From positions 49,285-113,284 of the IMG/VR virus record IMGVR_UViG_3300031555_003080: 64,000 nucleotides of DNA; one strand, given 5' to 3'. The notes beneath the pieces were generated by a model. That model worked only from the letters and a program-made list of their open reading frames with translations, was not told the DNA's origin and did no database searches. The stretch comes from a virus. How positions within the stretch are numbered: position 1 is the first letter of the stretch; the number at the start of each line of letters is the position of its first letter. Made by a program: the position numbers and the translations under genes. Positions 52,416 through 52,506 of this stretch are shown one piece after another.

Positions 52416-52506
52416 TGGCTGGGGACCTGGGATTCGAACCCAGACAACCCCTTCAAAGGGAATAACGGTTTTAGAGACCGGCGTCCTACCATTAGACGAG
52501 TCCCCA
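52416..52506 (-). tRNA. suppressor tRNA, anticodon CTA (reads UAG); tRNA-Gln-like body
   Basis: TGGGGACTCGTCTAATGGTAGGACG CCGGT CTCTAAA ACCGT + extra arm + CTGGGTTCGAATCCCAG GTCCCCA G CCA. Anticodon loop C-U-CUA-A-A. U1-A72, G73 and D-arm identical to the window's tRNA-Gln(CTG). Confidence 0.75.

Follow-up and report, generated by a model that had tools for sequence, protein, structure and literature searches.

The 64,000 nucleotides (nt) of viral DNA examined here (IMG/VR record IMGVR_UViG_3300031555_003080, positions 49,285 to 113,284; the whole stretch is called the window, and coordinates refer to it unless another record is named) carry on their minus strand, at 52416-52506, a 91-nt tRNA gene with anticodon CUA. 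This tRNA is very probably a functional amber suppressor that inserts glutamine at UAG. Its variable region holds a second hairpin, and the conservation of that hairpin among relatives makes it quite probably a selected look-alike of the anticodon loop of tRNA-Gln. Our overall reading, to which we assign a probability of roughly 0.55, is that a glutamine-type UAG decoder would carry the second hairpin as an identity anticodon for charging.

The suppressor tRNA and its extra arm

The elements of the gene, and its nearest relative in the window, are the following.

52416-52506, minus strand: complete tRNA gene, 91 nt, anticodon CUA, CCA encoded (ARAGORN; Rfam RF00005; 113.2 bits with covariance model R1)
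52419-52426, minus strand: 3' acceptor strand GUCCCCA and discriminator G73, the former pairing with UGGGGAC at 52500-52506
52483-52497, minus strand: D-arm GUCUAAUGGUAGGAC with G10-C25, of tRNA-Gln type and without class II features, different by one base from that of tRNA-Gln(CTG)
52465-52481, minus strand: first hairpin, the arm holding CUA, CCGGU-CUCUAAA-ACCGU (from the sequence)
52472-52474, minus strand: decoding anticodon C34-U35-A36 in the loop C-U-C-U-A-A-A (sequence, ARAGORN and Rfam alignment; the plus strand reads tag)
52444-52464, minus strand: 21-nt variable region UAUUCCCUUUGAAGGGGUUGU containing the second hairpin (Rfam alignment; kept in every relative found)
52447-52463, minus strand: second hairpin, resembling an anticodon arm, with stem AUUCC/GGGGU (two G-C, two G-U and one A-U pair)
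52452-52458, minus strand: 7-nt loop C-U-U-U-G-A-A of the second hairpin, with UUG, a glutamine anticodon, at 52454-52456
54877-54950, minus strand: tRNA-Gln(CUG), nearest relative in the window of the suppressor body (identity and covariance model)

The minus strand reads TGGGGAC TC GTCTAATGGTAGGAC G CCGGT CTCTAAA ACCGT in the 5' half of the gene and TATTCCCTTTGAAGGGGTTGT CTGGG TTCGAAT CCCAG GTCCCCA G CCA in the 3' half. ARAGORN reported a 91-nt tRNA at 52416-52506 (minus strand) with anticodon CTA at position 33; the name 'Pyl' that it gave to this tRNA is merely its label for CUA. Rfam model RF00005 matched 52419-52506 at 52.5 bits (gathering score 29), with an 18-nt insertion in the variable region. 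The molecule has the 7-base-pair (bp) acceptor, the GG of the D-arm, the 5-bp anticodon stem with a 7-nt loop and the UUCGAAU T-loop of the RF00005 cloverleaf, and both scanners place CUA at positions 34-36, with U33 and a purine at 37, as expected of an amber suppressor. An earlier note on this DNA, made from its letters and open reading frames, had put CUA in the C-U-C-U-A-A-A loop, a placement on which ARAGORN and Rfam agree. The U1-A72 pair and G73 that it described are read directly from the minus strand, as are the acceptor pairs G2-C71 and G3-C70.

Relatives of the gene support its structure. All seven acceptor pairs covary, and across nine variants of the cloverleaf compensatory double changes occur in 13 of 25 pairs, with 93.8% of cells paired; none of 500 shuffles attained the observed values. 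Consequently, a chance match or a pseudogene can be dismissed. Two special classes of tRNA were also rejected. The criteria used for tRNA-Pyl were a 6-bp anticodon stem, a 3-nt variable loop, a small D-loop without GG and the absence of a T-psi-C consensus, and the 5-bp anticodon stem, 21-nt variable region, D-loop GG and UUCGAAU T-loop found here rule it out. Allo-tRNAs have 8/4 or 9/3 acceptor/T-stem arrangements (PMC5389517), whereas all members of the family are 7/5.

The body of the suppressor is of glutamine type. Its D-arm (TCGTCTAATGGTAGGAC) lies one base away from the D-arm of tRNA-Gln(CTG) at 54877-54950, bearing out the near-identity that had been claimed. With the insert removed, and in comparison with the 36 other tRNAs of the window, the suppressor is 76% identical to this tRNA-Gln(CUG) and at most 70% identical to the rest. 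Members of the suppressor family score at least 92.7 bits with the family covariance model; the top non-member is again tRNA-Gln(CUG) 54877-54950, at 54.1 bits, which the model ranks above class II tRNAs even though those do carry a long arm. Bacterial genomes, scanned with one genome per species, contain the suppressor D-arm type together with a YUG anticodon in at least 120 contigs, spread over many phyla, and the variable loop is normal in every case, so this D-arm is a genuine and widespread tRNA-Gln type. The same D-arm type with CUA gave no match in the bacterial genome scan (one genome per species), and a bacterial origin of the suppressor was rejected on that count. Within the scanned data, the combination of CUA and a long arm is confined to phages and metagenomes.

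Glutamine identity was judged by the E. coli GlnRS paradigm (PMC9976931), in which the anticodon determinants U35 and G36 of tRNA-Gln affect kcat by up to 10^4-10^5 fold and the pairs 1-72, 3-70 and 10-25 and the discriminator also matter. The acceptor and D-arm part of this set is present, as the earlier note had recognized, with a weak 1-72 pair (U1-A72), G2-C71, G3-C70, G73 and G10-C25, and no member of the family has G-C as its first pair, which is weak or mismatched in every case. In contrast, the decoding loop departs from the anticodon determinants U35, G36 and A37, since A36 replaces G36 while U35 and A37 are present. The complete U35-G36-A37 set of the suppressor tRNA is found only in the loop of the extra arm. 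Another glutamine-like tRNA of the window, at 54587-54660 (minus strand), shares U1-A72, G73 and the D-arm type with the suppressor, and its anticodon region is aberrant: ARAGORN gives it a 2-base anticodon and Rfam only 34.6 bits. It may be a decayed copy or have an unusual loop size.

The extra arm was compared across a family of 29 distinct tRNAs with 20 distinct arms, and its register was set by covariation, as thermodynamic predictions for the arm alone told little about two variants and favoured another register. Family-wide it consists of a covarying stem of 3-5 bp that closes a 7-nt loop, C-U-(C/U)-U-G-A-A. In this register the closing pair is formed in 20 of 20 arms, the second level likewise in 20 of 20 (16 C-G and 4 G-C), and the third in 15 of 20 with five pair types. 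The alternative tetraloop register is continuous over fewer levels, and its pairs are owed mostly to conserved loop bases and C/G slippage. The earlier note had described a 21-nt inserted arm, CCCT-TTGA-AGGG; the insertion itself stands, placed by Rfam in the variable region, while the tetraloop yields to the C-G-closed CUUUGAA loop that covariation favours. Two loop variants depart slightly (U-U-C-U-G-A-A and U-U-U-U-G-G-U).

The sole variable position of the loop toggles between C and U, which yields exactly the two glutamine anticodons. Letter for letter, CUCUGAA and CUUUGAA make up 63 of 107 distinct genuine bacterial tRNA-Gln anticodon loops, whereas among 121 distinct class II phage tRNAs only 1 has YUYUGA in its variable region. 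With nothing but CC-UYUGAA-GG and its distance from the T-arm specified, a scan returned 108 tRNAs: 97 ordinary tRNA-Gln in which the motif is the anticodon loop, 10 long CUA tRNAs in which it is the extra arm, and one other. The extra arm thus matches a normal tRNA-Gln anticodon arm in sequence, loop size and distance from the T-arm. The suppressor is best described as a tRNA-Gln body with two tandem anticodon-type hairpins, the first of which carries CUA.

Scans that permitted short or long variable regions found only long ones for this D-arm with CUA (6 IMG/VR and 12 metagenome contigs), and a broader scan added 30 further IMG/VR contigs with different D-arms, mostly of 130-197 kb and from many samples. 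There is one exception to the association with CUA: a 90-nt class II, Ser-like tRNA with called anticodon ACU in IMGVR_UViG_3300002092_001791 (locus L289) has the variable arm GUACC-CUUUGAA-GGUAC, the same look-alike of the glutamine loop. Two further syntenic sites, 51750-51832 (minus strand) in the window and 2299-2380 in locus L025, match the family model at about 22 bits and are not called by ARAGORN; they may be decayed tRNAs or tRNA-like elements.

Two tandem hairpins raise the question of which one decodes. If the YUG hairpin decoded and the CUA hairpin were the extra one, the gene would be a tRNA-Gln for CAA and CAG and no suppressor. The YUG hairpin does lie at the true anticodon-arm distance from the T-arm, and the two descriptions are topologically equivalent. 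However, it is the first hairpin that class II tRNAs stack on the D-stem, and here the first arm has the better helix, with a stem (CCGGU/ACCGU) of tRNA-Gln type. When the first loop was left free, the arm was found only with CUA in one scan and with CUA in 10 of 11 long tRNAs in another. Furthermore, the family tracks TAG-recoded loci, and the phage already has two ordinary tRNA-Gln genes. We regard decoding by the YUG hairpin as very improbable.

UAG as a probable glutamine codon

The window avoids TAG as a terminator. Open reading frames (ORFs) of at least 150 amino acids on the coding (minus) strand end in TAA in 31 cases, TGA in 8 and TAG in none (n = 39); TAG makes up 13.7% of stops in control phage loci of similar G+C, so that 0 of 39 has P ~0.003. 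A greedy gene set gave 54 TAA, 16 TGA and 1 TAG (n = 71), the lone TAG-ended ORF being one of 66 amino acids inside a tRNA spacer. Most in-frame TAGs of long stop-to-stop frames lie upstream of a likely start codon, and those at 21150, 20678 and 36139, with several near ORF starts, were discarded on that account. The convincing in-frame TAGs of the window are three codons in two otherwise intact genes.

52515-53189, minus strand: gene of 224 codons with in-frame TAGs at 52980-52982 and 52656-52658 and 21 full-length homologues
3845-4792, minus strand: gene whose product combines a membrane helix at the N terminus, a coiled coil and, at the C terminus, a GIY-YIG-like region (from the translation)

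The first of these genes ends 9 nt upstream of the suppressor tRNA, and its codons are the best evidence inside the window for TAG being read as glutamine. Searches of PHROG and Pfam gave no match for this gene and none for the small ORF downstream of the tRNA. In the second gene the in-frame TAG, at 4706-4708, falls between the membrane helix and the coiled coil, and homologues in phAss-like contigs have 5-8 in-frame TAGs each, alternating with CAG and CAA.

Many proteins of the large collection used here were called with genetic code 15 (examples are in L023-L029 and P0001-P0010), in which a 'Q' can be a translated TAG. The 'Q' residues of protein databases are not independent evidence at recoded sites, and inference from residues is circular unless the DNA is checked. 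Because several 'Q' residues of homologues are indeed TAG, we compared TAG columns as codons in DNA. For 52515-53189 the comparison covered six syntenic contigs with the order tRNA-Ser, gene and 91-nt CUA tRNA. TAG alternates with CAG or CAA in three of four columns, including a near-invariant glutamine of a DQLI motif, and with GTT or ACT in the fourth. In the heavily recoded and more distant phAss-1 group it alternates with CAG or CAA in seven of eight polymorphic columns, and one contig has TAG in place of the invariant glutamine of a CYIGQA motif. Pooling the 12 informative columns, the partner is CAA or CAG in 10 and never a Ser, Leu, Tyr, Lys or Trp codon.

Gains in coding coverage point in the same direction. 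In 36 loci with a long CUA tRNA, reading TAG as sense raised ORF coverage by a median of +0.144, against +0.050 for a TGA control; this asymmetry is absent from control phage loci. In the window itself the gain is little, +0.041. Its contents, as regards the code-15 question, are replication, metabolism and tRNA genes only, and the small gain fits a region kept in a standard-compatible code, a pattern described for such regions of recoded phages (bioRxiv 10.1101/2021.08.26.457843). The earlier note had proposed a glutamine-inserting amber suppressor in a phage with reassigned TAG, and had suggested a rise in coding density upon recoding as a check. The glutamine-type body, the TAG columns, the in-frame TAGs of two intact genes and the lack of TAG terminators in the longer coding-strand ORFs all speak for its proposal, and the rise in coverage appears in the loci of the family.

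The codon columns also bear on the amino acid that the extra arm might specify. A long arm could confer class II identity, such that SerRS, LeuRS or TyrRS would charge the tRNA and UAG would mean Ser, Leu or Tyr, as in allo-tRNAs and the nematode nev-tRNAs. Long variable arms with G73 are found in tRNA-Ser, and tRNAs with such arms and unexpected anticodons are known to be charged through the arm or the discriminator (PMC5389517, PMC3333845). However, alternation of TAG with Ser, Leu or Tyr codons is seen in 0 of the 12 informative columns. The D-arm is of the short Gln/Glu type, the linkers on either side of the arm exceed in length those of the tRNA-Ser genes of the same phage, and the acceptor begins with UGGGG and is not of the G1-C72 type. 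Given the short D-arm and the lack of a matching codon alternation, assignment to class II was rejected despite the long arm, and charging by these enzymes is extremely improbable.

The position between tRNA-Ser(UGA) and the suppressor, occupied in the window by 52515-53189, varies in content among close relatives: locus L016 (493-1275) has there a radical-SAM-like gene containing two in-frame TAGs, and locus L013 (2353-5457) about 3 kb of other genes. The gene in this slot seems always to contain TAG. A further suppressor-type tRNA of the window, a 74-nt molecule at 61296-61369 (minus strand) with the opal anticodon UCA, is labelled 'SeC' by ARAGORN; its discriminator is A, and it lacks both an encoded CCA and an extra arm. 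Read-through of TGA, considered because of this tRNA(UCA), was rejected, since TGA-joined ORFs are not in excess and TGA terminates 16 of the 71 ORFs on the coding strand.

The tRNA-Ile(UAU) hairpin and a proposed identity anticodon

A second tRNA of the window has an inserted hairpin.

58675-58769, minus strand: tRNA-Ile(UAU), 95 nt
58708-58723, minus strand: inserted hairpin GCAC-CAGAUUA-GUGC-G, whose loop has GAU at its centre (from the sequence)

The anticodon arm precedes this hairpin and an ordinary AGGUU variable loop follows it, and GAU is the standard isoleucine anticodon. Relatives were recovered by BLAST against GenBank phages and then with the hairpin 16-mer (GCACCAGAUUAGUGCG), which occurs in 84 IMG/VR contigs and lies inside a called tRNA at 73 of 80 loci. 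The anticodon is UAU in all 73 of these tRNAs, which comprise 40 distinct sequences whose other stems are widely divergent. The identical 16-mer is also found in annotated or unannotated tRNA-Ile(UAU) of Synechococcus phages and of a Latilactobacillus phage in GenBank. When the cyanophage anticodon arm was fixed and the variable region left free, the exact hairpin appeared in 37 of 38 contigs, and the remaining one has two compensated stem pairs with the loop unchanged. A pattern from the anticodon arm of the window's own tRNA-Ile(UAU) had no match in IMG/VR. Among the 37 tRNAs of the window, arms with a cognate anticodon occur in two, the CUA and the Ile(UAU) tRNAs, which are exactly those with decoding anticodons of non-host type.

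We propose the following mechanism. The suppressor would allow a huge phage without TAG terminators to translate genes bearing in-frame TAG. The change of G36 to A36 in the anticodon would remove a major element for the glutamine-charging enzyme of the host, be it GlnRS or a non-discriminating GluRS with GatCAB acting after it. The lost U35-G36-A37 signal would be provided by the second hairpin as a separate 'identity anticodon', so that glutamine charging would keep its efficiency and specificity while decoding of UAG on the ribosome is left to the first hairpin. The tRNA-Ile(UAU) would use the same trick, its hairpin showing the GAU that IleRS normally reads. In such a split-anticodon design, the first hairpin would read a codon outside the host tRNA set (UAG by CUA, AUA by UAU), and the second, in the variable region, would present YUG (for Gln) or GAU (for Ile) to the anticodon-dependent class I synthetase of the host. 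The proposal rests on the dependence of GlnRS and of IleRS on the anticodon (PMC9976931) and on the restriction of such hairpins, in the window, to tRNAs with non-host-type anticodons. That the extra arm acts through the aminoacylation machinery is a possibility to which we would give somewhat less than even odds. We advance more tentatively still the generalization that some phage tRNAs split the decoding anticodon from an identity anticodon by means of two tandem anticodon-type hairpins.

Several observations weigh against the identity-anticodon proposal. The first concerns geometry. GlnRS is a class I enzyme that approaches tRNA from the D-arm side, leaving the variable region facing the solvent, so for its loop to be read the arm would have to swing, or the second hairpin would have to take the position of the anticodon arm. 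A flexible arm is one way round this difficulty, and the flanking linkers are longer than those of the tRNA-Ser genes. The two hairpins might also swap their stacking position under the D-stem; either arrangement is speculation. Other points concern the evidence for mimicry. The match of the Ile hairpin loop, CAGAUUA, to the genuine tRNA-Ile(GAU) loop, CUGAUAA, is inexact, and thus poorer than in the glutamine case. RNAfold alone prefers a 4-5-bp stem with a tetraloop for the arm of the window tRNA. Several scans fixed CTCTAAA or CTYTGAA, which makes the invariance of the motif partly a matter of design.

Armless tRNAs with the same anticodon form another set of objections. Ordinary CUA tRNAs of 73-78 nt without the arm exist, often adjoining the long one in 19 of 57 loci, so the arm is not indispensable; where both occur, the evidence that TAG means glutamine is assignable to neither. 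Further tRNAs may lie beyond the right edge of the window, possibly including a second CUA tRNA. A short CUA tRNA (70-78 nt) stands beside the long one in about a third of loci, namely L001-L006, L009, L010, L012, L014, L018-L021, L261, L263 and L265, and the phAss-type short CUA tRNA has a U1xC72 mismatch and G73.

Some of these facts are what one would expect if the arm were a leftover or a structural addition, for example a partial duplication of the anticodon arm or T-arm, that stabilizes the tRNA or is tolerated without being read, the tRNA remaining a glutamine suppressor. The loop sequence UUYGAA resembles that of the T-loop, UUCGAA, from which UUUGAA differs by one base, making descent by partial duplication possible. 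Related phages have the armless short CUA tRNAs, RNAfold gives thermodynamically weak hairpins for two arm variants, and phage tRNAs with normal anticodons (Glu, Gln and Lys in locus L022; Thr and Lys elsewhere) have inserted arms with generic loops. However, a neutral relic should decay, and here the loop is kept while the stem covaries through five pair types. Equally difficult for an unread arm are the C/U toggle that matches the two glutamine anticodons, the rarity of the motif in class II variable arms (1 of 121) and the identity of the Ile hairpin in 40 otherwise divergent tRNAs. We consider an unread arm unlikely.

The arm-bearing tRNAs with normal anticodons merit description in their own right. 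L022 (IMGVR_UViG_3300031994_000008), a huge phage contig, has tRNA-Glu(UUC), tRNA-Gln(UUG) and tRNA-Lys(UUU) of 86-91 nt with variable-arm hairpins whose loops are GUUG, AUA and UUCG, and it also has a transfer-messenger RNA (tmRNA) gene; the coordinates listed for these tRNAs and the tmRNA are 2494-2581, 2646-2736, 12589-12674 and 4443-4839. Comparable long tRNA-Thr(UGU) and tRNA-Lys(CUU) occur in loci L173, L222 and L182.

The arm might instead be read by something other than a synthetase, as a decoy or shield against tRNA-cleaving defences or as a handle for a factor that times or licenses suppression and hence the translation of late genes. RNA/tRNA repair and quality-control genes in the window suggest pressure on its tRNAs, although the fit is loose. 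Published models tie suppressor tRNAs to the timing of late and lysis genes (bioRxiv 10.1101/2021.08.26.457843), and phage tRNAs are known to evade anticodon nucleases (PMC10264068). Against a decoy or handle stands the distribution of such arms, found only on the two tRNAs with non-standard anticodons among 37. Nuclease evasion does not predict a cognate standard anticodon in each arm, and the retention of the Ile hairpin across cyanobacterial, lactobacillal and gut phages points to a universal host partner. A role of this kind seems improbable to us.

Genomic context, known systems and significance

The G+C content of the window is 38.8%. Almost all genes are on the minus strand, as are all 37 tRNA genes, which extend from 48.8 kb to the right edge of the window. 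It encodes DNA gyrase A and B, an NAD-dependent ligase, a PhoH-PIN protein and an SLH-domain protein. Among deposited phage genomes there is no close relative, the matches being tRNA-sized only. Taken together, these features are the profile of a huge phage. Exact matches to its proteins came from contigs of 1.5-2.7 kb in JGI sample 3300032167. Theta/HDV-like ribozymes, reported beside suppressor tRNAs, did not appear between 48 and 64 kb, where tRNA was the only Rfam family above threshold.

A set of RNA/tRNA repair genes, all on the minus strand (26588-27445, 34047-35456, 36401-37225, 39668-40498 and 45507-47072), comprises a Thg1-like 3'-5' polymerase, an RNA ligase, an RNase T-like exonuclease, RlaP and a DUF2828/DUF7788 protein (PHROG 850, 'RNA-binding protein'), and suggests that the phage defends or maintains its own tRNA pool. 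A cluster for NAD salvage and synthesis, also on the minus strand (23179-24051, 24825-26300, 29274-30128 and 30125-30655), includes NAD synthase, NAMPT/NAPRTase-like and PRPP-synthetase-like proteins and an isochorismatase-family nicotinamidase; a similar set is annotated in phage phAss-1. Two products are unusual phage cargo: an 813-amino-acid protein with major-vault-protein shoulder and repeat domains (30761-33202, minus strand) and a 497-amino-acid SPFH/flotillin-like protein (18165-19658, minus strand).

The suppressor family itself is already deposited. Phage phAss-1 (OQ749652.1) has a member at 62445-62532, annotated tRNA-Sup-CTA, which adjoins a 75-nt CUA tRNA and tRNA-Leu(UAA). Between positions 8 and 65 this copy and that of the window differ in a single loop base, while the proteins of the two phages share 30-40% identity. 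The acceptors differ in four compensated pairs, phAss-1 having A1-U72 and C3-G70 where the window tRNA has U1-A72 and G3-C70, and phAss-like genomes pair the long CUA tRNA with the 75-nt one, whereas one CUA tRNA is seen in the window. The authors of the phAss-1 study assigned TAG to glutamine and reported no dedicated synthetase; their paper makes no comment on the variable region (PMC10607447). More generally, the tRNA-Sup(CUA) of code-15 phages (crAss-like, Lak and phAss-1) are alike in being phage-encoded CUA tRNAs of TAG-recoded genomes with a host presumably of standard code, in the glutamine inferred at TAG and in the lack of a dedicated synthetase found nearby. Published descriptions present them as ordinary suppressors and leave the variable region unmentioned, as do the preprint of Borges et al. 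(bioRxiv 10.1101/2021.08.26.457843), the theta-ribozyme preprint and a 2026 survey of jumbo phages. Our literature search turned up no account of phage suppressor or Ile(UAU) tRNAs that describes a long variable arm or an anticodon mimic in them. The conserved copy of a tRNA-Gln anticodon stem-loop in the extra arm of the suppressor, with its parallel in phage tRNA-Ile(UAU), appears to be undescribed.

The E. coli suppressor supE (glnV44) likewise has a tRNA-Gln body in which CUG has become CUA. Its first five acceptor pairs, UGGGG/CCCCA, and G73 are the same as in the window tRNA. The comparison with supE, drawn in the earlier note, is apt for a glutamine body with CUA and undersells the molecule: supE is a plain anticodon point mutant, a weak suppressor with a normal 4-5-nt variable loop and no conserved glutamine-loop hairpin, whereas the window tRNA adds a 17-nt hairpin of that kind. 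Class II and other tRNAs with variable arms (Leu, Ser and Tyr tRNAs; allo-tRNAs, PMC5389517; nev-tRNAs, PMC3333845) share with it a helix between the anticodon arm and the T-arm, and in some of them the arm and not the anticodon sets the amino acid. The window tRNA differs in its 7/5 acceptor/T arrangement, its class I D-arm and its conserved 7-nt cognate anticodon loop, and its inferred amino acid matches the loop of the arm (Gln), unlike the Ser or Leu of tRNAs with variable arms.

Mimics of anticodon arms that recruit a synthetase exist outside tRNA. The operator of E. coli thrS is an anticodon-arm mimic read by the synthetase. Further cases are the yeast HisRS mRNA (PMC6542539), the poliovirus internal ribosome entry site bound by GlyRS (PMC3384309) and viral tRNA-like structures (bioRxiv 10.1101/2023.07.08.548219). 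The likeness lies in a hairpin with a cognate loop that recruits the matching synthetase away from the canonical position. However, those mimics belong to mRNAs or viral genomes, where they control translation or replication, whereas here the mimic would be part of a working tRNA and would serve that tRNA's own aminoacylation, a use for which our literature search found no described precedent.

Recoding of stop codons is well established in phages. Borges et al. (bioRxiv 10.1101/2021.08.26.457843) explicitly raise the question of how a suppressor tRNA can remain a good substrate for a host synthetase that recognizes the anticodon. A second hairpin that copies the cognate loop offers a concrete and directly testable hypothesis, suggested by two unrelated families, the Gln-type CUA and the Ile-type UAU tRNAs. 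If true, it would constitute a new kind of tRNA identity element and a natural, portable answer to the loss of identity that follows when an anticodon is reassigned. It would also offer a model from nature for building efficient suppressor or reassigned tRNAs while the synthetase is left unaltered, and it would explain how one tRNA design works across hosts as different as cyanobacteria, lactobacilli and gut bacteria.

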